DNA from: a virus
Taxonomy: Duplodnaviria; Heunggongvirae; Uroviricota; Caudoviricetes
Strand: one strand, 5' to 3'
IMG/VR virus record: IMGVR_UViG_2718217868_000007
Location: 1-11,990 of that record
Length of the DNA: 11,990 nucleotides
Under the pieces are notes generated by a model that saw only the letters and a list, made by a program, of their open reading frames with translations, made no database searches and was not told the origin of the DNA. Positions 1,823 through 11,990 of the stretch are shown here, one piece after another. The number at the start of each line of letters is the position of its first letter. The first letter of the stretch is position 1. A program made the translations under genes and the position numbers.

Positions 1823-1860
1823 GGTGCGAAGGTGCGAAGGTGCGAAGGCCGGACTCAAAC
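1823..1860 (-). repeat. degenerate tRNA 3'-end-like sequence with a triplicated octamer; candidate distal att site of the P4-like prophage
   Basis: Plus strand has GGTGCGAA three times in tandem (1823-1846) followed by GGCCGGACTCAAAC. The reverse complement GTTTGAGTCCGGCCTTCGCACC resembles the T-arm/acceptor 3' end of tRNA-Leu (leuX, ...GGTTCGAGTCCGGCCTTCGGCACCA) as I recall it. It is not an intact tRNA. Confidence 0.4.
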
Positions 1861-2059
1861 ATCAAAATAAGTCAATGATAAAAAACAAATAATAAAACAC
1901 AACAATGAAATATGCCCCCTTTTGTGCCCCCACTGTTTTTCTGACCAATCTATTTTCAGCCCATCAACAAATCGGAAAGTTAAATAATTTTTAATCAGTA
2001 AGTTTGGATCCGTAGTTCGGATCCAAACCAGTGCATCTTTTATCCACATAAAAATTTTT

Positions 2060-2350
2060 TTTTCGGAAGAACTGTTCACACTGTTCACCTTTCTTTTTTC
2101 TCCTTTTATTTCATAGTGATAGGTGGTGAATAATGGGTGAAGGGTGAACATTCGATTCTTCACCTCCGGCATTCTGCCGGTGTGACTTGTGCAGGGGATT
2201 AATTTCCCGTGCTGAAATCACACCGGAAGAAAAAAGTTTTTTTTGATTTGATTGTTCACACTGTTCACCTTTCGTTTTTCTCTTTTAATTTCAGTGTGAT
2301 AACGGGTGAATATACGGTGAAGGGTGAACAGTGGATTGTTCACCTTCGGG
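2060..2350. repeat. crr-like cis replication region: two ~120-bp direct repeats carrying TGTTCACC/GGTGAACA iterons
   Basis: Repeat unit 1 (~2062-2169) and unit 2 (~2222-2350) are near-identical. Each contains TGTTCACA+TGTTCACC (2073-2089; 2253-2269), GGTGAACA (2143-2150; 2323-2330) and an inverted copy (2157-2164 degenerate; 2337-2344). Located immediately downstream of alpha, as crr is in P4. Confidence 0.75.
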
Positions 2351-2361
2351 GGATTCAGGGA

Positions 2362-2387
2362 TAAAAAAAGACCGGCAGATGCCGGTC
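2362..2387 (-). terminator. rho-independent terminator downstream of alpha
   Basis: On the minus strand, hairpin GACCGGC-ATCT-GCCGGTC (2370-2387) followed by a run of 7 T (plus-strand A run 2363-2369). Begins 16 nt after the alpha stop. Confidence 0.6.
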
Positions 2388-2403
2388 AGATGAGTCATGA
2401 TGG

Positions 2404-4737
2404 TCAGGTTGTTGCAGGGTCGTCACATTTTGGCAGCCAGTCGCCGTAGCTTTCCTCTTTCAGCGTCAGGTTGGTCTGTATCCCCTGTTTGGTATGGCGC
2501 TTCTCGTAATTCAGTCCATATTCCTTCAGCATCACCGGCAGCCCCAGCCCGAACATTTTCAGACTGAGTACATTCCGGTAGCCGTTTGCCTCCATGTAGG
2601 CCAGATAGGCGTGATAGAGGTATTTACGGTAATTACGCGGGATGATACTGGCGTTCCCCATATACATGCCGCTGGTCTGCGGCAGGGTTTCCAGATAGCC
2701 GATAAAATCAAACGTCGGGTCGGCATCCCGTTTGATGTTCAGTGCCTCGTCTGAGTTCTGCTGGGACTGAAGCAGTGACCGGGCGAGCATCGGGTCGCTG
2801 AACTTCTGCATCAGGTGACGCACGATGACCGCCAGCTCGCGGGTGATTTTGTCCTTAAGCTGCGGGTCGCGCTCCTGCGGGGCTATCTGTTCCGGGAAGT
2901 GAATAATCACCCGCCGGCGTGACACGCCGCCGCTGCGGTCGGTGAAGCGCATCGGGTTATTGTTCACGGCCAGAATCACCGCCGGGATATGCGTGGAGTA
3001 CGCATCCCGGTATTTCGGGTCCACGGACACCGCATCGCCGCCGGTGATGGCCTTGAGTCCGGCACCGTCGCCGCTCCATTTTTCCTGGTCCGGCAGGCGT
3101 ATCAGTGAGAAGCCAGTTAACGCGGCACGTTCACGCGGGGATTCCAGCGTCTCGATGGTGGCCGACGTGGCGTTATCCTCCCCGGCCAGCAGGGTGGCTA
3201 TTTCGGCCATGATACTTTTGCCGCTGCCGCCGGGACCGGTCACCTCCAGAAAGAGCTGCCAGTCGTAGCGGTTTGCCAGCACCATAAACAGTGCGGCCAG
3301 AATCACGTCGCGTTTTTCCGCACGGCCACCGGCGGCACGGTCAAGCCAGCGCCAGAACGCGGGGGCGTGGGTCTCCAGCGTTTCACCGTCCACCGGCGGG
3401 GTGAAATCCACATCGCACAGGGTGCGCATCCAGTGTGACGGACTGTGCGGGTGGAACGTGCCGTTCTGCGTGTCGAGCACGCCGTTACGAAAGCCAATCA
3501 GGCGGCGGGAGGGGGCTTCCTGCTGCGGAATAATCAGCTTCAGGGTGTCCACCACGGAGGCCACCTTCCCGGAGGAGAACGGCGCGCGCAGACGCTGAAA
3601 CAGCCCGGCCACATCCCGGGCAAAGTCCTGTGGTGGCAGCACCTTCCAGACACCATTTTCATAACGGGACAGAAGCTGGCCGTTGGCATCGACCGCGAGC
3701 GCCTCGCCGTAATGCTCATAGATACGCATGGCCTTTTCGCTGGTACTCATGGCGGAAAACTCCGCTTCGCTCATGGTGTCGAACGGGCTTTCAGCCGGTG
3801 GCCGGATGGCATCGTAAATGGCCTTACGGGTGGCCTCCCCGCCGTACTGCGTGAAGGCATCATTCCAGTCACCGAAGACCGGCGGCAGGGCAACAACGCC
3901 CTCACACGCATCTGCGGCTGCGGCGGCTTTTTTCTGGCCGTCACCGCTGAGGTCACGGTCTGCGGCAAGGACAATCTGACAGGCCGGATGCTTCTGCCGG
4001 GCAAGGCTGGCCAGAGAAAGGAGATTCACGGAAGAAAGCGCCACCATCACCGTTTCACCGGTCAGGTGATGCACGGTAAGTGCGGTCGCGTATCCCTCCG
4101 CTATCCACAGACGTTTTCCGGCCTGATTCTGTCCTTCAAGGGTGTGACAGGTGCCCCTGACCTGTCCGCCTTTCAGGGTGCGCTTACGGCCGTCAGCACT
4201 GATTAACTGAAGGTTAACCAGTTCGCCGCTGTCGTCATACAGTGGCACCACAAGGTCACCGGCACGCCAGCTCACGCCACCGGCTCTGTGTGTGCCGGTC
4301 AGCATCCGGCATTCCCGGCCGGGAAAGCCCTTGCGGGTCAGGTAGGCGTTACCGGTTCCGGGACGGGTTTTCGCCATCAGGGTTTGTGCCAGTGCGGCGG
4401 CGTTCTTCCGGGCAGCGTCTGTTTCAGCACCGGCGGCAGCCGTCACTGCCGGGTCAGCCGGGGGCAGGCTGCCGGTCACGGCAGCCACCTTTGCGGCCGC
4501 ATCGGACGGGGAAACACCAAACACCTTTTCAACCAGTTTCAGGCCGTCACCGGCACCACACTGATTGCAGTACCAGGTGCCGCGCCCCTCCCTGTCATCA
4601 AAACGGAAGCGGTCACTCCCGCCACAGACCGGACAGGGCTGATGACGGTTTTTCAGCACCTGAATCCCCAGCGCCGGGAGAATACGCGGCCAGTGGCCGA
4701 GCGCATGGCTGACGGTGGCGGTTACGTTCATTTTCAT
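2404..4737 (-). CDS. alpha: P4 alpha-type bifunctional primase-helicase / origin-binding replication protein, 777 aa
   Basis: 777 aa, the same length as P4 alpha. N-terminal zinc-binding primase motif CPVCGG...WYCNQCG, Walker A GPGGSGKS in the central NTPase domain, RBS AGGAG 9 nt upstream of the ATG at 4737. Flanked by TGTTCACC iteron clusters, the known alpha binding sites. Confidence 0.92.
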   Translation of the reverse strand: MKMNVTATVSHALGHWPRILPALGIQVLKNRHQPCPVCGGSDRFRFDDREGRGTWYCNQCGAGDGLKLVEKVFGVSPSDAAAKVAAVTGSLPPADPAVTAAAGAETDAARKNAAALAQTLMAKTRPGTGNAYLTRKGFPGRECRMLTGTHRAGGVSWRAGDLVVPLYDDSGELVNLQLISADGRKRTLKGGQVRGTCHTLEGQNQAGKRLWIAEGYATALTVHHLTGETVMVALSSVNLLSLASLARQKHPACQIVLAADRDLSGDGQKKAAAAADACEGVVALPPVFGDWNDAFTQYGGEATRKAIYDAIRPPAESPFDTMSEAEFSAMSTSEKAMRIYEHYGEALAVDANGQLLSRYENGVWKVLPPQDFARDVAGLFQRLRAPFSSGKVASVVDTLKLIIPQQEAPSRRLIGFRNGVLDTQNGTFHPHSPSHWMRTLCDVDFTPPVDGETLETHAPAFWRWLDRAAGGRAEKRDVILAALFMVLANRYDWQLFLEVTGPGGSGKSIMAEIATLLAGEDNATSATIETLESPRERAALTGFSLIRLPDQEKWSGDGAGLKAITGGDAVSVDPKYRDAYSTHIPAVILAVNNNPMRFTDRSGGVSRRRVIIHFPEQIAPQERDPQLKDKITRELAVIVRHLMQKFSDPMLARSLLQSQQNSDEALNIKRDADPTFDFIGYLETLPQTSGMYMGNASIIPRNYRKYLYHAYLAYMEANGYRNVLSLKMFGLGLPVMLKEYGLNYEKRHTKQGIQTNLTLKEESYGDWLPKCDDPATT

Positions 4738-4751
4738 GGTGTTGTTCTCCT

Positions 4752-5072
4752 TCAGTGCAGTACCGGCGCTTTTATGTGACGGGCACAGAGTTCATCCATC
4801 ACAACCAGCCCGAGAAAGGACAGCGACGGCGCGGCCTTCAGGGGGCCGGATTCCATTAAATCTTCCAGCAGGGCACAGGCTATCTGACGCCCTTTTTCCT
4901 CACCGTGCTGGCGCAGATAAAAGCCTTCCAGCTCAGCGGCGATGGCCGCCTCCAGTGACTCAAGGGTGAGATGCGGGTAGCGGTGCTGACGTTCGCACAC
5001 GGTCAGCCAGGCACAGGCGACAGCGCGACGGTAAAGGGCAGCGCGTAAGACGGGCGGTAAGGGTGTTTTCAT
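4752..5072 (-). CDS. hypothetical protein, 106 aa, left-operon gene immediately upstream of alpha
   Basis: RBS GGGAGG 7 nt upstream of the ATG at 5072. Stop lies 14 nt before the alpha start. No motif recognised. Position corresponds to a conserved small ORF in P4-type left operons. Confidence 0.55.
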
Positions 5073-5207
5073 TTGTTTTCCTCCCTGTGACAGATGACTG
5101 CATTCCGTGCCGGTTGCATTAACTGATAAGGCATATCTGCGTCTCCTGAAGACGTGCGTATCCCTGCGCGAATACGCACATTTAATTTTTCGGGTGTCGT
5201 TTTTTAA

Positions 5208-5663
5208 TTACAGATAATTGCGGTAACTGTTATCCGGGGTGATTTCCGGGTCAGGCTCCGTGCGGGAAATTTCCCGCCATTCCCGCGCCACCGGTGCCGC
5301 CCGGCTGACCGGAACAGGGTCCTGCGGGTAAATATCCAGATATTTCTCCCGCCATTTCTGTAATTCCGGGTCTCCGGCCATTTCTTTCAGTACCGCATGC
5401 CGGTTTACGGGGCTGCGTCTGAACAGGTCAGGACGGTCACAGGTAAATTCCCGCAGAAAACGCCCCAGCGGGATGTCTGTGGTGCGCCCGTCGGCGAGGA
5501 TACGCACAAGGATACTGAATTTACGGCGGTACGGATTCCAGACAATGTCCGGGCAGCGGTACGGCATTTCCCACGGAATACCGTCTTCCAGAATGCCGAC
5601 CACGGCCACATCGGGAAAACCGGCAGAACGGTAAATCTCACCGGGCTGGGGAAAATCAAACAT
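5208..5663 (-). CDS. hypothetical protein, 151 aa, left-operon gene
   Basis: ATG at 5663 overlaps the stop of the upstream ORF (ATGTTTGA), indicating translational coupling. Size and position match the ORF known as orf151 in P4. No catalytic motif recognised. Confidence 0.55.
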   Translation of the reverse strand: MFDFPQPGEIYRSAGFPDVAVVGILEDGIPWEMPYRCPDIVWNPYRRKFSILVRILADGRTTDIPLGRFLREFTCDRPDLFRRSPVNRHAVLKEMAGDPELQKWREKYLDIYPQDPVPVSRAAPVAREWREISRTEPDPEITPDNSYRNYL

Positions 5664-5943
5664 GTGTCCTGTCTCCCCGGTCTTTCTGCTGGGCGAGAAA
5701 ATCGCGGCACAGGCCTTTGGCTTTCAGCTCATTCAGCACAAACTCAATATCTTCATTCAGGTAGCTGAAAATATGCGGAATGTAGAGCTGATGCAGGCCG
5801 GAGAGTTCACGGTGAATCAAATCACCCCCAACAAACTGGGATACGGCGCTGGCGCGGTTGAGCTTATGGTAAGCCTCAATGCTGAGGTGTTCACGGGCGT
5901 CATGATGCGCTGAGACGGTCTGAGGGGCTTTTTTATTACGCAC
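5656..5943 (-). CDS. hypothetical small protein, ~95 aa (GTG start preferred; in-frame ATG at 5988 is an alternative)
   Basis: In-frame GTG at 5943 is preceded by GGAGG (5954-5950) with a 6-nt spacer. The hydrophilic C-terminal part looks protein-like. Stop overlaps the start of the 151-aa gene. The six-frame track extends this frame to 6183, but that part overlaps the neighbouring small gene. Confidence 0.4.
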
Positions 5944-6133
5944 GGGACACCTCCACCACCGGCAGACGGGCAGCAAGGGAGAGCACATAGTCACGGACAA
6001 GGGAACGGCGGGCACTGCGTTCATCACCGGCGACGGTGCGAAGCATACAGATACGGGGATGACGGTCTGTGCGACGGACAGCCGCAAACACAAAGACAAA
6101 TTCAGGGTGTGAGGGGGTAAGGGTTGTAGCCAT
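5936..6133 (-). CDS. hypothetical small protein, 65 aa, first translated gene after the leader
   Basis: ATG at 6133 is preceded by GGAGG (6145-6141). This is the C-terminal segment of the 211-aa six-frame ORF; the longer reading would run through a terminator-like hairpin and overlap vis, so the short form is preferred. Confidence 0.35.
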
Positions 6134-6522
6134 AAGGCAACCTCCGATAACAGCGTAAATGACGCTATCGCCGGAGTTCTCACGCTCGATGGCGATAGCC
6201 CAGACGGGGGTGAGAATACCGGCGTTATCGGAAACCGGCCAGCCCGGAGGCTGCCCCGCCTGAGCTACCATTGACTCAGTGGCATAACATGCGATTGCGA
6301 ACAGGATCATACCTGCACGGCAAACCACACGCCACACCATAATCTGGTGCTCTGTGGCGTTGATTGCGACACAAAAAAAGACGCATGGCGCGTCATATGT
6401 CGCCGATAACATACTCGGGTTCTCACGCCCGGCTGCCGATTTTGCGGCAGCGGAAAAACTATATCCGCAAATGCCGGAAAAAGGCAAGCCAGAAAAAGGG
6501 AGTTTTTGCAGAGCGGGCATCA
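6134..6522 (-). promoter_or_regulatory. untranslated leader of the left operon; candidate early promoter and RNA-based immunity region
   Basis: About 390 bp between vis and the first small gene with no convincing ORF. Contains a terminator-like hairpin and a 9-mer present twice (6403-6411; 6144-6152, abutting the SD) whose complement lies between them (6220-6231). P4 encodes its immunity RNA in this leader. Confidence 0.3.
6373..6394 (-). terminator. terminator-like hairpin plus T-run inside the leader
   Basis: Minus strand reads a 5-bp-stem hairpin GACGC-GCCAT-GCGTC (6380-6394) followed by TTTTTTT (plus-strand A run 6373-6379). The stem is short, so strength is uncertain. Confidence 0.4.
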
Positions 6523-6789
6523 TCATGCGTCGTACCCCCGTTTGCGTCCGGCAATGCGTCCGGCCATCCATGCGGTGACTTCAGAGTGCAGCCAGGCCAC
6601 ATTTTTACCGCCAAGACTCACCTGCGGCGGAAATTCCCCCTTACGGATGAGTTCATAGATGGTCGAGCGTGACAGGCCGCACAGGTGCATCACTTCCGGC
6701 AGACGTAAAAAACGCTCCTGCGTGATGTCCGGCAGCGGCATCAGTGGCGTCACAGGGGCGGGAGACGGGGAAGAAAAAACAGCTTGCAT
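6523..6789 (-). CDS. vis: AlpA-family helix-turn-helix regulator (P4 Vis-like), 88 aa
   Basis: Core [46 protein letters not shown] is a typical AlpA-type HTH. 88 aa, as for the P4 ORF originally named orf88. RBS GAGGT 7 nt upstream. It is the first gene downstream of a TGT-N12-ACA dyad. Confidence 0.7.
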
Positions 6790-6891
6790 CGGGCTACCTC
6801 GTTAATGTCCATACAGCACCGGATAAGTCCGTCCGGCTTCGGGTAGCGCTTTATTTTGTGAATATTTTTGGCAGACGCAACAGGGGGGATT

Positions 6892-6909
6892 TGTTCCGGC
6901 AGCCTTACA
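6892..6909 (-). promoter_or_regulatory. TGT-N12-ACA dyad; candidate Ogr/Delta-dependent late promoter (PLL-like) reading leftward into vis
   Basis: TGT (6892-6894), 12 nt, ACA (6907-6909). A TCACAAA-type element (6861-6855) sits ~43 nt downstream on the minus strand, with vis starting ~110 nt from the dyad centre. Consensus is from P2/P4 late promoters. Confidence 0.45.
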
Positions 6910-6934
6910 ATGACTGTGTGTTTTTTGTTCATCT

Positions 6935-6964
6935 CCACTTAAAGTCATTTAAAGCCACTTAAAG
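6935..6964. repeat. three tandem 10-bp repeats (CCACTTAAAG / TCATTTAAAG / CCACTTAAAG)
   Basis: Read directly from the sequence. Lies just upstream of the PLL-like dyad in the vis/ori intergenic region. Confidence 0.6.
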
Positions 6965-7068
6965 CAATTCGTAATTTTTATAGTGAAATACAAATCGTTT
7001 TTTCTTATTCATTCCCGGCGAATTAATAAAAACAAACAGTAATAAACAGCACAAAAAGCCCATCAACG

Positions 7069-7172
7069 GGTGAACAGTGGTGAACAGACGGTGAACAGTC
7101 ATTACTGCGATTGTTCACCCTTTAACTTACTGTATTACTTATCTTTTTTCTTATGGTGAACAGAGGTGAACA
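7069..7172. other. ori-like cluster of six type-I iterons (GGTGAACA / TGTTCACC)
   Basis: GGTGAACA at 7069-7076, 7079-7086, 7090-7097, 7155-7162 and 7165-7172, plus inverted TGTTCACC at 7112-7119, in AT-rich context. Same octamer as in the crr-like repeats ~4.8 kb away. P4 ori and crr are both built from this alpha-binding octamer. Confidence 0.7.
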
Positions 7173-7252
7173 GTAAAATATAAAAAAAATAAACAGTAAG
7201 CCGTTTTTTCCAGCGACCTTTTCCTGGCTTGCCGGTGTGAGGATGAGTCTCC

Positions 7253-7270
7253 TGTGTCAGGGCTGGCACA
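7253..7270 (+). promoter_or_regulatory. TGT-N12-ACA dyad; candidate Delta/Ogr-activated late promoter (Psid-like)
   Basis: TGT (7253-7255), 12 nt, ACA (7268-7270). TCACAAT element at 7304-7310 lies ~45 nt downstream. The sid ATG at 7343 is preceded by RBS GAGGAG (7330-7335). Confidence 0.5.
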
Positions 7271-7342
7271 TCTGCAATGCGTCGTGTTGTTGTCCGGTGT
7301 ACGTCACAATTTTCTCAACCTGAAGTGACGAGGAGCCGGAAA

Positions 7343-8077
7343 ATGTCTGACAACACCATCCCTGAATATCTGCAACCCGCACTGGCACAACTGGAAAAGG
7401 CCAGAGCCGCCCACCTTGAGAACGCCCGACTGATGGATGAAACCGTCACGGCCATTGAACGGGCAGAGCAGGAAAAAAATGCGCAGGCGCAGGCCGACGG
7501 AAACGACGCTGACGACTGGCGCACGGCCTTTCGTGCAGCCGGTGGTGTCCTGAGCGACGAGCTGAAACAGCGCCACATTGAGCGCGTGGCACGCCGGGAG
7601 CTGGTACAGGAATATGACAATCTGGCCGTGGTGCTGAATTTCGAACGTGAACGCCTGAAAGGGGCGTGTGACAGCACGGCCACCGCCTACCGGAAGGCAC
7701 ATCATCACCTTCTGAGTCTGTATGCAGAGCATGAGCTGGAACACGCCCTGAATGAAACCTGTGAGGCGCTTGTCCGGGCAATGCATCTGAGTATCCTGGT
7801 ACAGGAAAATCCGCTCGCCAACACCACCGGCCATCAGGGCTACGTCGCACCGGAAAAGGCTGTCATGCAGCAGGTGAAATCATCGCTGGAACAGAAAATT
7901 AAACAGATGCAAATCAGCCTCACCGGCGAGCCGGTTCTCCGGCTGACCGGACTGTCAGCGGCAACACTCCCGCACATGGATTATGAGGTGGCAGGCACAC
8001 CGGCACAGCGCAAGGTGTGGCAGGACAAAATAGACCAGCAGGGAGCAGAGCTTAAGGCCAGAGGACTGCTGTCATGA
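7343..8077 (+). CDS. sid: Sid-like capsid size determination (external scaffold) protein, 244 aa
   Basis: Start taken at the ATG at 7343 with a strong GAGGAG RBS, giving 244 aa as in P4 Sid; the track ORF begins at an upstream ATG (7277) with no RBS. First gene of the operon sid-delta-psu; its stop overlaps the delta start (ATGA at 8074-8077). Assigned by synteny and size, not by motif. Confidence 0.75.
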   Translation: MSDNTIPEYLQPALAQLEKARAAHLENARLMDETVTAIERAEQEKNAQAQADGNDADDWRTAFRAAGGVLSDELKQRHIERVARRELVQEYDNLAVVLNFERERLKGACDSTATAYRKAHHHLLSLYAEHELEHALNETCEALVRAMHLSILVQENPLANTTGHQGYVAPEKAVMQQVKSSLEQKIKQMQISLTGEPVLRLTGLSAATLPHMDYEVAGTPAQRKVWQDKIDQQGAELKARGLLS

Positions 8078-8574
8078 TTTACTGCCCGTCGTGTGGACAT
8101 GTTGCTCACACCCGTCGCGCACATTTCATGGACGATGGCACCAAGATAATGATTGCACAGTGCCGGAATATTTATTGCTCTGCGACATTTGAAGCGAGTG
8201 AAAGCTTTTTCTCTGACAGTAAAGATTCAGGAATGGAATACATTTCAGGCAAACAGAGATACCGCGATTCACTGACGTCGGCCTCCGGCAGTATGAAACG
8301 CCCGAAAAGAATGCTTGTTACCGGATATTGTTGTCGGAGATGTAAAGGCCTTGCGCTGTCAAGAACATCGCGGCGTCTGTCTCAGGAAGTCACCGAACGT
8401 TTTTATGTGTGCACGGAGCCGGGCTGTGGTCTGGTGTTTAAAACGCTTCAGACCATCAACCGCTTCATTGTCCGCCCGGTCACACCGGACGAACTGGCAG
8501 AACGCCTGCATGAAAAACAGGAACCGCCGCCAGTACGGTTAAAAACACAATCATATTCGCTGCGTCTGGAATGA
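8074..8574 (+). CDS. delta: Delta: tandem Ogr-type zinc-finger late-gene transcription activator, 166 aa
   Basis: Two Ogr-like Cys4 modules in one polypeptide: CPSCGH...AQCRNIYCSATF and CCRRCKG...VCTEPGCGLVF. 166 aa as in P4 delta. N-terminus resembles P2 Ogr. Confidence 0.9.
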   Translation: MIYCPSCGHVAHTRRAHFMDDGTKIMIAQCRNIYCSATFEASESFFSDSKDSGMEYISGKQRYRDSLTSASGSMKRPKRMLVTGYCCRRCKGLALSRTSRRLSQEVTERFYVCTEPGCGLVFKTLQTINRFIVRPVTPDELAERLHEKQEPPPVRLKTQSYSLRLE

Positions 8575-8647
8575 GGGCTGCCGGTTAACACCGGCCGTCG
8601 CCGCACACCGTATTTTTATTCTTCAGCATGATGAGAAAGAGATAACG

Positions 8648-9220
8648 ATGGAAAGCACAGCCTTACAGCAGGCCTTTGACACCTGTCAGAATAACAAAGC
8701 AGCATGGCTGCAACGCAAAAATGAGCTGGCTGCGGCCGAACAGGAATATCTGCGGCTTCTGTCCGGGGAAGGCAGAAACGTCAGTCGCCTGGACGAATTA
8801 CGCAATATTATCGAAGTCAGAAAATGGCAGGTGAATCAGGCTGCCGGTCGTTATATTCGTTCGCATGAAGCCGTTCAGCACATCAGCATCCGCGACCGGC
8901 TGAATGATTTTATGCAGCAGCACGGCACAGCACTGGCGGCCGCACTGGCACCGGAGCTGATGGGCTACAGTGAGCTGACGGCCATTGCCCGAAACTGTGC
9001 CATACAGCGTGCCACAGATGCCCTGCGTGAAGCCCTTCTGTCCTGGCTTGCGAAGAGGGAAAAAATTAATTATTCCGCACAGGATAGCGACATTTTAACG
9101 ACCATCGGATTCAGGCCTGACGCGGCTTCGGTGGATGACAGCCGTGAAAAATTCACTCCTGCGCAGAACATGATTTTTTCGCGTAAAAGTGCGCAACTGG
9201 CATCACATCAGTCTGTGTAA
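8648..9220 (+). CDS. psu: Psu-like polarity suppression / capsid decoration protein, 190 aa
   Basis: Third gene of the sid-delta-psu operon, 190 aa as in P4 Psu, followed by a terminator and the cos region. Assigned by synteny and size. Confidence 0.75.
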   Translation: MESTALQQAFDTCQNNKAAWLQRKNELAAAEQEYLRLLSGEGRNVSRLDELRNIIEVRKWQVNQAAGRYIRSHEAVQHISIRDRLNDFMQQHGTALAAALAPELMGYSELTAIARNCAIQRATDALREALLSWLAKREKINYSAQDSDILTTIGFRPDAASVDDSREKFTPAQNMIFSRKSAQLASHQSV

Positions 9221-9250
9221 AACTCCCCGAAAATCCGCCCGTTTTTACTG

Positions 9251-9295
9251 AAAAAAGCCATGCATCGATAAGGTGCATGGCTTTGCATGCGTTTT
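9251..9295 (+). terminator. rho-independent terminator after psu (A-run, 8-bp stem, T-rich tail; possibly bidirectional)
   Basis: A6 (9251-9256), stem GCCATGCA (9257-9264), 9-nt loop, TGCATGGC (9274-9281), then TTTGCATGCGTTTT (9282-9295). Confidence 0.55.
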
Positions 9296-9384
9296 CCTGC
9301 CTCATTTTCTGCAAACCGCGCCATTCCCGGCGCGGCCTGAGCGTGTCAGTGCAACTGCATTAAAACCGCCCCGCAAAGCGGGCG

Positions 9385-9403
9385 GGCGAGGCGGGGAAAG
9401 CAC
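9385..9403. other. cos-like site: P2/P4-type 19-nt cohesive-end sequence
   Basis: Exact 19-mer GGCGAGGCGGGGAAAGCAC, followed by TGCGCGC, which matches the P2/P4 cohesive end as I recall it. Lies between psu and the cargo locus, as expected for a P4-type element. Confidence 0.65.
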
Positions 9404-9838
9404 TGCGCGCCAGCATCAAAGTGTTTAGATAATTTCGCGGCCTGAGGGTGACGACACGTAGTGCAGATTCGTACGAGTGCCTGTTACTGTCGGATACTAT
9501 TCAAGGGCAGCACAACCTATGAAATGACAATGCTAAAGGAGACGAAGAAGCCGCCTTAAGGCGGCATACATCAGTCACTTGTTGGGTGCCGAAGGCGTAA
9601 CTTTTAAATCTGGTCATATAATGTCTTGCAATTTTTTTACATCGTTTATTCGTTGCTATAGTAACCTGTACCAATCCATATACCAGTTTAAAGCCGTCAG
9701 ATAAATTAGGCTATCATGGAGCAGACGGCACGGCGGTACATGAGTAACGTACCTATTTTCTCAACTTGTTTAAGATGCTGTGCAATACTGACGCATGGGA
9801 GCATGCTTCATCATTTTTTTGTATCCGGATATGGAATG

Positions 9839-9866
9839 TTGACAATCAAAATGTTATCAATATCTT
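9839..9866 (+). promoter_or_regulatory. sigma70-like promoter for the Doc/Fic cargo gene (TTGACA, 16-nt spacer, TATCTT)
   Basis: Perfect -35 TTGACA (9839-9844), 16-nt spacer, -10 TATCTT (9861-9866). Gene RBS AAGGA at 9890-9894 and ATG at 9901. Confidence 0.45.
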
Positions 9867-9900
9867 TCATGTGATCTAAAAATCGTAATAAGGATAGTGA

Positions 9901-10629
9901 ATGCGTATTGGAACTGTAGAAGAAATTCACAATTTTTTAAGTGAATACTATATCAACTCCGAAGACCCTATATCCCCACCAGGAGTGAAAGATGTGGGAT
10001 TACTAGAATCAGCGTGTGCAAGACCGTTTGCTTCCGCTGGTGGGCAGGATGCTTTCGGCGATGTATACCACAAAGCAGCAGCACTATTCCATGGAATTAT
10101 TTCCAACCACTGTTTTTATAACGGAAACAAAAGAACCGCATTATTATCAGCCCTTTATTTTTTGAGTGAACATAACCTTTGGTTAGAAAGATGTAATGAT
10201 GAGGAAATGTTTGAATTTACTCGTCAGGTTGCCGCTCATGAAATATGTGAAAAAAGGGATGACGAGATAGATATTATAGCAGATTGGTTTAACAGAAATA
10301 CTCGGCGAATAGTGAAAGGAGAAAAACCCCTTAACTTTTCGAGCCTACGAGAAAGTTTATCTCAATTTGATTTCCAACTAGAAGATGAAGGGCAATATGC
10401 ATTCATCTATAAAAATGGTGAGATCGTTGAGAAAGTGCTAAAAAAAGGGAAGCAAGGAATGCAAGAATATGATCAAGCATATATTGCTGAGCTTCGAAAG
10501 CGCTTAGATTTAACGCCTGAACATGGGGTTGATAGCGCTCGTTTTTATGGGCAGAAAGGTTTAAATGAGGATTTGAATGAATTTATGAAACTTCGTGTAA
10601 AAGTTTTTGATTGGCTAGCCAAGATCTAA
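9901..10629 (+). CDS. Fic/Doc-family protein (Doc-type HxFxNGNKR motif) with ~110-aa uncharacterised C-terminal extension; satellite cargo gene
   Basis: 242 aa. Residues 70-78 HCFYNGNKR (nt 10108-10134) fit the Doc-type HxFx(D/N)(A/G)NKR active-site motif. No Phd-like partner ORF is evident nearby. Markedly AT-rich relative to the P4 backbone. Has its own promoter, RBS and terminator. Confidence 0.85.
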   Translation: MRIGTVEEIHNFLSEYYINSEDPISPPGVKDVGLLESACARPFASAGGQDAFGDVYHKAAALFHGIISNHCFYNGNKRTALLSALYFLSEHNLWLERCNDEEMFEFTRQVAAHEICEKRDDEIDIIADWFNRNTRRIVKGEKPLNFSSLRESLSQFDFQLEDEGQYAFIYKNGEIVEKVLKKGKQGMQEYDQAYIAELRKRLDLTPEHGVDSARFYGQKGLNEDLNEFMKLRVKVFDWLAKI

Positions 10630-10635
10630 AACTTA

Positions 10636-10660
10636 AGAAGCCTGCGTTTCGCAGGCTTCT
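10636..10660. terminator. hairpin terminator between the convergent Doc/Fic gene and int
   Basis: Perfect inverted repeat AGAAGCCTGCG-TTT-CGCAGGCTTCT with AT-rich flanks on both sides, placed between two convergent stop codons (10629 and 10731). Confidence 0.5.
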
Positions 10661-10730
10661 ATTATTAAAATCAGAAAAGCACCACTTTAAATATAACATT
10701 TAACGAAATTGCGTACTATTAATAATAAAT

Positions 10731-11990
10731 TTACACCTGCCTTTTTGCGAAATCGTATGGTGTAATATAATCAACAGTGTTTTTTTCAAGATAATCGGCC
10801 CACCACTGTACCATCAAACGACGTTCATCCAAATGCTCAGATGTATGGATATAAGCTGCACGTACATTATTACGCTCTGAATGGCTCAACTGTCGTTCTA
10901 TCGCGTCATCACTCCATAACCCTGACTCACCGAGCGCTCCACGCGCCATCGTCCTAAATCCATGCCCGCAAACCTCGGTTTTCGTGTCATACCCCATCGC
11001 ACGCAATGCGCTGTTTACCGTGTTTTCACTCATAACTTTAGTTGCGTCATGATCCCCCGGAAAGAGTAGCTCTTTATCACCACTAATCTGTTTTAACTGG
11101 TCTAACAAAATCATCGCCTGCCAACTAAGAGGAACAATATGCTCCTCTTTCATCTTCATGCCACGATACGAGTAACGAACACCTTTAATTTCTTCTCGTT
11201 TTGCAGGTATACGCCAAAGCGATTTATCGAAGTCGAACTCATCCCAACGTGCGAAACGTAACTCACTGGAACGCACAAAAGTTAGTAATGAAAGTTCGAC
11301 CGCGATCCGTGTCATTACACGGCCACGATATGCCGCAAGACGTGCGAGAAACTCAGGAAACCGGCTAGAGGGTAGAGCTGGATAGTGTCGCGCTTTAGTT
11401 GTCGATAAAGCACCGGCCATATCACTGGCTGGATTTGAGTCGATGTAATCGTTCTGTACGGCATAACGCATAATGGCCGTAACGCGCTGCTGAAGACGCT
11501 GCGCCACGTCATGCTTACCACTGGCATCAACTTTTTTAATCGGGGCTAACAAGTGACTGGTTTTGAGCTGGCGAATGTCGGACAAACCGATATGAGGGAA
11601 GATATAAAGCTCAAGGTAGCGAAGAACGCGCGATCGATGATCTTCACTCCAGCGCTTGTTACTAGCATGCCATTCACGAGCAATGGTTTCGAAAGTATAT
11701 GCCCCCGAATTCTCAGCCTTAGCTTCCTTCTGTTCGGCTTTTGGGTCAATGCCCTGCACTAACAGCTTTTTAGCTTCGTCACGCTTTGCTCTTGCCTGAG
11801 CAAGGGTCACAGTGGGCCAAACACCAAAAGCGAGGCGATCCTCTTTTTTGTCAGAGGGACGTCTGTATTTCATGCGCCAGTATTTAGAACCCTTGGCCGA
11901 AACCTCGAGATACAAACCGCCGCCATCGGCCATTTTGTAGGTTTTGTCTTTTGGCTTTGCGGTCTCGACTTGTCTGGCGTTGAGCTTCAT
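10731..11990 (-). CDS. int: P4-type tyrosine integrase, 419 aa
   Basis: N-terminus MKLNARQVETAKPKDKTYKMADGGGLYLEV is characteristic of P4-family integrases. C-terminal catalytic region has H-x-x-R (GHGFRTMARG) and the tyrosine in RAAYIH. The ATG is the last codon of the window, so the promoter and tRNA/att site are off-window. Confidence 0.93.
   Translation of the reverse strand: MKLNARQVETAKPKDKTYKMADGGGLYLEVSAKGSKYWRMKYRRPSDKKEDRLAFGVWPTVTLAQARAKRDEAKKLLVQGIDPKAEQKEAKAENSGAYTFETIAREWHASNKRWSEDHRSRVLRYLELYIFPHIGLSDIRQLKTSHLLAPIKKVDASGKHDVAQRLQQRVTAIMRYAVQNDYIDSNPASDMAGALSTTKARHYPALPSSRFPEFLARLAAYRGRVMTRIAVELSLLTFVRSSELRFARWDEFDFDKSLWRIPAKREEIKGVRYSYRGMKMKEEHIVPLSWQAMILLDQLKQISGDKELLFPGDHDATKVMSENTVNSALRAMGYDTKTEVCGHGFRTMARGALGESGLWSDDAIERQLSHSERNNVRAAYIHTSEHLDERRLMVQWWADYLEKNTVDYITPYDFAKRQV

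Follow-up and report, generated by a model that had tools for sequence, protein, structure and literature searches.

Does the stretch at positions 6134-6522 of the window (the whole 11,990-nt piece of viral DNA analyzed here, IMG/VR record IMGVR_UViG_2718217868_000007), in which a 9-nt word occurs twice with a near-complement between the two copies, carry an immunity switch built from RNA, and if so, with which specificity? A preliminary description of this DNA had proposed a resemblance to the immunity system of phage P4, in which a small RNA from an untranslated leader pairs with two target sites of the same transcript and terminates early transcription. This resemblance is borne out in a literal sense, the locus being homologous to the P4 immunity region and not merely reminiscent of it. 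The full window corresponds to positions 4359217-4371206 of the E. coli H6 chromosome at 100% identity, and its positions 1839-9384 are colinear with positions 4079-11624 of P4 at 97.5% identity over 7.5 kb. The integrase gene (10731-11990) adjoins a tRNA-Leu gene, which is the P4 attachment locus. Within this backbone, positions 5900-6900 align with P4 (X51522, positions 8132-9141) at 94.2% identity, and hence the similarity to the P4 immunity region, whose absence had been named beforehand as a reason to abandon the proposal, amounts to near-identity and establishes the homology. That the element is P4 itself had not been recognized in the preliminary description.

The order of genes around the leader, namely vis, leader, kil (icd-like), epsilon, orf151, orf106 and alpha, matches the left operon of a P4-like satellite. 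The vis gene (6523-6789), a member of the AlpA family, flanks the leader on the side opposite kil, while kil (5936-6133, minus strand, ATG at 6133) heads the translated genes of the left operon and encodes a 65-aa Icd-like cell-division inhibitor, whose residues 12-59 match NCBIfam NF033153 (phage_ICD_like) with E = 8.8e-22. Beyond kil are located epsilon (Pfam Derepression, PF25738), orf151, a gene with DUF5375 and the alpha primase gene. Judged by its sequence, the window is a P4 satellite prophage of E. coli that is near-identical to P4, and 6134-6522 is the immunity leader of its left (replication) operon, situated between the promoter PLE and kil. This leader is the strongest hotspot of divergence from P4, since 50 of the 188 differences found along the 7.5-kb backbone fall within 6039-6438. 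Taking together the evidence presented below, we consider it very probable that the locus serves a P4 satellite prophage as an RNA-based switch for immunity, i.e., for the maintenance of lysogeny.

The repeated word is exact on the plus strand, with CCGATAACA present at 6144-6152 and again at 6403-6411, as initially described. Concerning the complement between the two copies, its presence was confirmed at 6223-6231 with one mismatch; the sequence given for it, GGCGTTATCGG, spans 6221-6231 and not 6220-6231. Since the mismatch in this middle element becomes a G.U wobble on the minus-strand RNA, nine pairs are possible and the proposed ability to pair with either flanking copy is retained. Eight of these nucleotides form the core kept across relatives, and the ninth pair is specific to the allele of the window. 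The CCTCC motif at 6141-6145, corresponding to GGAGG on the minus strand, indeed overlaps the copy at 6144-6152 and sits 7 nt ahead of the ATG at 6133 of the 65-aa ORF (6133-5936), and the suggestion that pairing with the downstream copy would extend over the Shine-Dalgarno (SD) sequence agrees with a predicted 11-bp duplex that takes in the whole GGAGG. The hairpin with a run of seven T residues was likewise recovered, by a terminator scan, at 6394-6373 on the minus strand. The direct repeat alone has little weight, with an exact 9-mer repeat found in 25% of dinucleotide shuffles of 6134-6522, as against just 8 of 5000 such shuffles with a repeat and an inverted copy of at least 8 nt between both copies. 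A search of the window for further targets of the CI RNA gave four 9-mer matches with one mismatch (at 2699, 5228, 8316 and 8329) with 2.3 expected, which is not above chance.

The anatomy of the leader can be followed from promoter to kil on the minus strand. A consensus scan revealed a PLE-type sigma-70 promoter at 6458-6487, with the -35 hexamer TTGCCT at 6487-6482, an 18-nt spacer and the -10 hexamer TATAGT at 6463-6458, the latter falling, in mapped coordinates, exactly where P4 record X02534 has its '-10 consensus' feature. Transcription is expected to start near 6451, the position at which the Rfam isrK model starts. The transcript would begin with leader hairpin 1 (6432-6451, GCUGCCG-CAAAAU-CGGCAGC), which is the first hairpin of the c4-a1b1/isrK motif according to the Rfam alignments and folding and has seven conserved pairs in RNAalifold, followed by leader hairpin 2 (6416-6431, CGGG-CGUGAGAA-CCCG), supported by the Rfam alignment and folding and presenting in its loop a recognition element designated a1. 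The first copy of the repeated word, read on the RNA as UGUUAUCGG at 6403-6411, constitutes seqA (b1), which serves as the target of the CI loop on the upstream side. Next comes an intrinsic terminator at 6373-6394, with a 6-bp GC-rich stem (GACGCG/UGCGUC) and U7, which was identified by the terminator scan, is conserved with P4 and is kept between seqA and cI in 36/36 aligned relatives; by position it corresponds to the P4 terminator t1, reportedly described by Briani 2000. Membership of known RNA families was established for this part of the leader, as the RNA from PLE to t1 (6451-6374) matches Rfam isrK (RF01394) with 71.2 bits (gathering score 50), and 6464-6412 matches Rfam c4-a1b1 (RF03163) with 50.8 bits (gathering score 46.7). 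The spacer between t1 and the CI RNA (6276-6372) is variable: compared with P4 it lacks 9 nt and differs by many substitutions, and in distant relatives another sequence or a shorter one stands in its place. At the distal end, the second copy, again UGUUAUCGG, at 6152-6144, belongs to seqC (b2, feature 6141-6152) and overlaps the kil SD sequence GGAGG at 6145-6141, and a CUCC block at 6173-6176, directly after a second element a2, is a predicted anti-SD sequence that would have the kil GGAG as its partner when CI is absent.

The central part of the leader (6188-6275, minus strand) corresponds to the CI RNA and matches the Rfam C4 family (RF01695) at 76.2 bits (E = 7.7e-14), above the gathering score of 45. 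Its outer stem of 16-17 bp (6270-6254 with 6209-6193) resembles a tRNA acceptor stem and is followed by GCCA, and within it are hairpin I (6253-6240) and hairpin II (6239-6218), this cloverleaf coinciding with the 'dyad symmetry' feature of X02534. The fold has a minimum free energy (MFE) of -47.3 kcal/mol (z = -4.0) and leaves seqB and a further element, a', unpaired. In 36 relatives the cloverleaf is paired in 100% of 972 cells, with 6 pairs compensated. The middle element constitutes seqB (b', 6223-6231, minus strand), which reads CCGAUAACG in the window and CCUGUGAAG in P4, and is displayed by hairpin II in a loop of 10-12 nt (6234-6223). The cost of opening within CI was calculated to be 0.3-2.0 kcal/mol for b' and 0.01 kcal/mol for a', and the seqB loop, as the determinant of specificity, is not the same as in P4. 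The mature CI species probably lies within 6269-6190; the CI RNA of P4 has a size of approximately 69 nt. The acceptor-like stem with the GCCA is suggestive of processing of CI from the leader by RNase P/PNPase, and PMC5499578, citing Forti 1995, describes CI RNA as an RNase P substrate.

Besides the b-type sequences, the leader contains a second complementary triplet, an a-type recognition site that the preliminary description overlooked. GUGAGAA is found at 6426-6420 and 6183-6177, and UUCUCAC at 6216-6210, all on the minus strand. The first copy is a1 (6426-6420), which leader hairpin 2 exposes in its loop and which costs 0.05 kcal/mol to open; a' (6210-6216), which is the same as in P4, occupies the single-stranded junction of CI located 3' of hairpin II; and a2 (6177-6183), between CI and seqC, is the downstream target of a'. 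Each site yields a 7-bp hybrid with a' of -9.2 kcal/mol. Among the relatives, a1-a' pairing is observed in 99.6% and a2-a' pairing in 100% of cells, in each case with both sides changed in 6/7 pairs. From these complementarities, the a and b sets evidently make up a two-site layout like that of P1 C4, each set having one upstream and one downstream target. Such an a'/b' two-site layout is known from the C4 RNA of P1/P7 and corresponds to the motif modeled by Rfam c4-a1b1.

Alignment of the transcribed strand to P4 revealed almost identical flanks, with seqA, seqB and seqC all differing in a compensatory manner. Thus, seqA is UUCACAGG in P4 and (U)GUUAUCGG in the window, seqB is CCUGUGAA in P4 and CCGAUAAC(G) in the window, and seqC is UUCACAGGAGG in P4 and (U)GUUAUCGGAGG in the window. 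All five differences (5/5) between the 88-nt CI RNAs reside inside the 12-nt seqB loop, where 5 of the 8 core positions differ, and the changes in seqA and seqC match those in seqB. Hence, the b-set alone has been switched, with the a-set unchanged. A hairpin at seqA (GUAUGUU/GACAUAU) is specific to the allele of the window and is absent from P4. The strength of pairing was assessed from duplex energies and opening energies in place of RNAcofold-style dimer folding, which was set aside because pairing of the loop with its target is a pseudoknot in that model. The cognate duplexes with the CI loop have energies of -11.5 kcal/mol for seqA and -14.6 kcal/mol for seqC, as compared to -2.5 and -6.8 kcal/mol for the P4 loop on the targets of the window and -1.3 and -4.1 kcal/mol for the loop of the window on the P4 targets. 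Such strong cognate pairing versus weak cross-pairing with P4 points to an immunity specificity unlike that of P4, and the element is probably heteroimmune to P4. Since the a-site is identical to that of P4, some cross-talk is conceivable, and partial cross-immunity with P4 could be exerted through this shared site.

Co-variation among the relatives, on which the preliminary description had made its proposal depend, is very strong for the three elements. A set of 122 related loci, 42 from Enterobacterales genomes retrieved via Vis and 80 from viral contigs retrieved via Kil, yielded 103 distinct leaders, in which 19 distinct seqA/seqB/seqC triples falling into approximately ten major classes were observed. 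On average 7.9 of 9 positions are paired in these triples, as compared to 5.5 +/- 0.3 with seqB shuffled, and 0/5000 shuffles reached a value as high. Pair statistics were obtained from an alignment of 36 representative relatives. The upstream targets are paired with CI in 93.9% of cells, as compared to 68.5% upon shuffling and 39-49% in slid registers, the pairing structure having been derived from the sequence of the window and hence biased against slid registers, though the margin is very large. In this set 12/16 pairs are changed on both sides, with a covariation score of 0.714 versus 0.21. A similar picture emerged for CI and the downstream targets, with 94.4% of cells paired versus 68.3% upon shuffling and a covariation score of 0.713 versus 0.204. 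Furthermore, RNAalifold found the a1-a' and seqA-seqB helices unprompted.

That these helices appear in the RNAalifold consensus as intramolecular pairings, and that every pairing partner is present on one transcript, would also suit a leader attenuator acting solely in cis, in which long-range helices within the transcript set termination or translation of kil and no processed trans-acting RNA is made. We regard such an attenuator as quite improbable, because the middle element is housed in a very stable and strongly conserved tRNA-like cloverleaf that is followed by GCCA. P4 immunity also hits superinfecting genomes, for which action in trans is required. In addition, the RNA matches the Rfam C4 family, and the characterized members of this family are, according to PMC5499578 and PMC4825925, processed trans-acting RNAs and RNase P substrates. 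The co-variation data address a further alternative, still less probable, in which a protein repressor recognizes the repeats on the DNA as operators, two of them direct and one inverted. seqA equals seqC in most alleles with seqB as the inverted copy, and a protein could select for the same identities, but the exceptions are of the G.U type, so that RNA pairing is kept while the identity of the DNA sites is broken, as exemplified by columns 50/231 with GC in 27 and GU in 9 relatives. More generally, the non-Watson-Crick cells are mostly G.U wobbles, which fits RNA-RNA pairing and not a DNA operator. Moreover, the inverted copy is always located in a conserved RNA hairpin loop, the downstream copy is phased with the SD sequence and the frame of the supposed 'cI protein' is not conserved, as it suffers 1- and 2-nt indels and its start differs between P4 and the window. 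Finally, it is hardly credible that the region is coding sequence as annotated by RefSeq and the repeats incidental: a minus-strand frame is open over 5936-6571, a RefSeq 196-aa Icd-like CDS spans 5936-6526 and P4 has a similar 137-aa 'cI' annotation, but three Rfam RNA families cover the leader, relatives carry frame-breaking 1- and 2-nt indels and the Icd-like domain is wholly inside the 65-aa ORF starting at 6133, three grounds on which the long-ORF protein reading of the leader was rejected, and besides, the ORF of the window and that of P4 do not start at the same place, a strong and correctly spaced SD sequence precedes the ATG at 6133 and the triple arrangement is rare by chance (8/5000 shuffles).

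With the leader understood as an RNA-based immunity switch, the relatives also provide a view of its diversity. The 103 distinct leaders comprise 26 combinations of 6 a' alleles with 13 b' alleles, which suggests a combinatorial a-by-b specificity code. The chances appear evenly balanced that the window has an uncharacterized specificity, one of at least 26 a/b combinations, within a system of many heteroimmune P4-like groups, with diversifying selection acting on an RNA address of 7+8 nt to keep the groups apart and with recombination in the t1-CI spacer reshuffling them. A few leaders appear to be recombinants, with L078 having both a1 and b1 foreign to its own CI and L094 having a foreign b1, and two more (L108 and L055) look degenerate. 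Two P4-like loci with different alleles reside in the same genome in several cases (for example L005/L010, L025/L033, L012/L018 and L034/L037), and one pair of co-resident loci (L064 and L065) has the same allele; no conclusion is drawn from the differences between co-resident alleles, since they are expected by chance given the number of alleles. Concerning abundance, a homologous leader is present in 1048/5426 complete E. coli genomes, with at least 99% identity over 431 nt in 168 of them. In the same genome set, the 62-nt center of CI with the seqB of the window is found exactly in 123 genomes and at 95% identity or more in 294.

Extrapolating from experiments with P4 and P1, we infer CI processing, action in trans, termination of transcription and heteroimmunity, and the following sequence of events can be proposed. 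Transcription from a constitutive PLE (~6451, minus strand) would proceed through the untranslated leader in the order a1, seqA (b1), t1, CI RNA, a2, seqC (b2), kil and the replication genes. The tRNA-like CI cloverleaf would be excised from this same transcript and would expose the seqB (b') loop and the a' junction. Pairing of CI with a1/seqA on nascent leaders would cause more stopping at t1, and hence autoregulation of CI, and its pairing with a2/seqC would cover the kil ribosome-binding site and block translation. As a consequence of the translation block, transcription would stop short of the replication genes and the prophage would remain silent, with the cell being immune to superinfecting elements that bear matching recognition sequences. 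Covering of the kil ribosome-binding site uncouples translation from transcription, and beyond CI P4 has two further terminators, the atypical t4 and the Rho-dependent timm. Pairing of CI with seqA reportedly enhances the intrinsic terminator t1, such that CI is autoregulated, as is said to have been found by Briani 1996, 2000. In line with the proposed scheme, PMC4825925 states that in P4 lysogens the replication genes are blocked by premature termination and that CI RNA, derived from the untranslated leader, pairs with seqA and seqC.

Some predicted structures complicate this mechanism. When the downstream fragment is folded by itself, a local hairpin is predicted to sequester seqC and the SD sequence (P(unpaired) 0.03) at an opening cost of 15.3 kcal/mol, due to which pairing between CI and seqC is not obviously favorable at equilibrium and may depend on kinetics during transcription or on nucleation at a2. 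The predicted pairing of the SD sequence with CUCC is widespread, having a median P of 0.98 and P > 0.5 in 93% of 103 unique leaders. In addition, the outer stem of CI has an alternative partner for its 3' strand (6199-6191), namely 6172-6164, with a2 placed in the loop and 3/9 pairs compensatory. The anti-SD hairpin and the hairpin that competes with the acceptor stem, both predicted, may refine the model for P4, either as a gate on the processing of CI or as the atypical t4 terminator itself. Upstream, no antiterminator competing with t1 was evident in the folding of the leader, and the MFE fold makes the t1 hairpin without CI, and hence the sequence leaves CI-enhanced termination at t1 unexplained.

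In terms of significance, the locus is the classical P4 CI RNA immunity switch, i.e., an already known system whose specificity most likely differs from that of P4, and altered specificity as a principle is reportedly documented already for phiR73 (Sabbattini 1996, cited in PMC7567579). What the locus provides is a clean natural case of an antisense RNA evolving in a compensatory fashion with its targets, three-way and indeed six-way, together with the prediction that a common E. coli satellite allele would not be repressed by the CI RNA of P4. A text search of PMC8628076, a large survey of P4-like satellites, gave no mention of immunity RNA, and therefore the catalogue of alleles may be new, in which case it constitutes an incremental result. 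The genome annotation is wrong at this locus, with a RefSeq protein placed across the entire non-coding leader and the RNA left unannotated.

Among known systems, Salmonella Gifsy-1 IsrK/STnc1160 shares the proximal part of the leader, as the RNA of the window from PLE to t1 matches the isrK model end to end. According to PMC3632133, the seqA RNA and CI RNA of P4 have their structural homologues in IsrK and C4, and PMC4825925 likens IsrK to P4 seqA RNA, with a downstream processed RNA analogous to CI. IsrK differs in that it belongs to a lambdoid prophage and activates orf45-anrP translation in trans. Such a trans-activating role is not known for the P4-type leader RNA.

The immI region of P1/P7 (C4 antisense RNA, icd-ant leader; Citron & Schuster 1990) specifies an RNA of the same family according to the covariance model, and the window likewise has the a/b layout, with b2 placed over the ribosome-binding site of an Icd-like first gene (NF033153). 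In contrast, the operon of the window comprises the P4 replication and derepression genes (epsilon, orf151, cnr and alpha) without an antirepressor, and the RNA is the primary immunity factor in P4 and not a secondary one as in P1/P7. Thus, the RNA module is homologous to that of P1/P7, yet the locus in the window is not an immI operon, since no antirepressor gene (ant) is found downstream. In retronphage phiR73, which is P4-like, immunity specificity reportedly differs from that of P4 via the CI RNA and its targets (said to be the work of Sabbattini 1996). The same principle of altered specificity would apply to the window, whose allele may or may not be that of phiR73. The homologous system of near-identical sequence is P4 immunity itself, with its CI RNA and with seqA, seqB and seqC in the PLE leader, as reportedly worked out by Deho 1992, Ghisotti 1992, Sabbattini 1995, Forti 1995/2002 and Briani 1996/2000. 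P4 and the window have in common the promoter, the leader hairpins, t1, the CI cloverleaf, the positions of the targets, the overlap of seqC with the kil SD sequence and the a-site. Relative to P4, the window is distinguished by its changed b-type sequences, by the 9-nt deletion and substitutions in the t1-CI spacer and by the extra ninth G.U pair.

Beside the seqA/seqB/seqC set, the leader of the left operon contains on its minus strand a second complementary triplet, a1/a'/a2, in which a' (UUCUCAC, 6216-6210), located in the junction of the CI RNA, is complementary to both a1 (GUGAGAA, 6426-6420), present in the loop of a leader hairpin, and a2 (GUGAGAA, 6183-6177). Co-variation within this triplet is as strong as that observed for seqA/B/C, with 99.6-100% pairing and double changes at 6 of the 7 pairs. 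The a2 site is in turn placed in the loop of a conserved 9-bp hairpin (GCUAUCGCC...GGCGAUAGC), in which 6199-6191 pairs with 6172-6164 of the minus strand and 3 pairs exhibit compensatory change. As this hairpin borrows the 3' strand of the outer stem of CI, its formation and that of the CI cloverleaf are mutually exclusive, and it could constitute either a processing switch or the atypical t4 terminator of P4. Directly after a2, a CUCC block (6176-6173, minus strand) is predicted to sequester the Shine-Dalgarno sequence of kil (6145-6142), the first translated gene of the operon, with a predicted P(unpaired) of 0.03 in the window element. The same pairing is predicted in 93% of related leaders (n=103).

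Four natural leaders carry upstream targets that mismatch their own CI RNA. In L078 both a1 and b1 (seqA) are foreign to it and in L094 b1 is, implying recombination in the spacer between t1 and CI, while in L108 and L055 seqB is a poor match to both targets. Reportedly, seqA and t1 are dispensable for lysogeny, with which such mismatches would fit. Parts of the leader are also matched separately in other phages: the CI region alone (6164-6271) shares 75-82% identity with N15-like Klebsiella phages such as phiKO2, and the seqA/t1 region alone (6365-6412) shares 91-95% identity with Stx-converting and Salmonella phages, where it lies beside antirepressor genes. Thus, these modules travel separately.

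RefSeq lists no ncRNA at the leader, and a 196-aa 'Icd-like' CDS (5936-6526 in the window, 6337-6927 in the locus L125) runs through this entire non-coding stretch, CI RNA included. Only the 65-aa ORF that starts at 6133 accommodates the Icd domain. In the P4 reference NC_001609, 8168-8584 is still assigned to a 'cI gene product / transcriptional repressor' of 137 aa. Elsewhere in the window, a sialate O-acetylesterase-like ORF (1-981, PF03629) is separated from the boundary of the P4 att core (~1839) by a segment, 982-1838, for which RefSeq lists gene fragments only, namely a partial HNH endonuclease and a partial phosphorothioate-dependent restriction endonuclease, which look like debris of earlier insertions at this site.

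Compared with P4, the strongest divergence hotspot is the immunity leader itself, as 50 of the 188 differences in the 7.5-kb backbone fall within 6039-6438. The second hotspot, 2039-2438, is the repeat region of crr (cis-required replication region), whose P4 repeats correspond to two direct repeats of 120 bp (2050-2169 and 2230-2349) with ~81% mutual identity. The gop-beta-cII segment of P4 is replaced in the window (9385-10742), at a position matching the psu-int variable hotspot of P4-like satellites (PMC9122126), by a gene of the Fic/Doc family encoding 242 aa (9901-10629, plus strand; PF02661, TIGR01550 DOC_P1), with which no obvious antitoxin ORF was called. Within the leader, the a1/a'/a2 triplet has the same sequence in P4 as in the window element. 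P4 lacks a local hairpin, GUAUGUU-AUCGGC-GACAUAU (6417-6396, minus strand), that is found only in the window allele, directly abuts the t1 stem and partly buries seqA at an opening cost of 4.3 kcal/mol.
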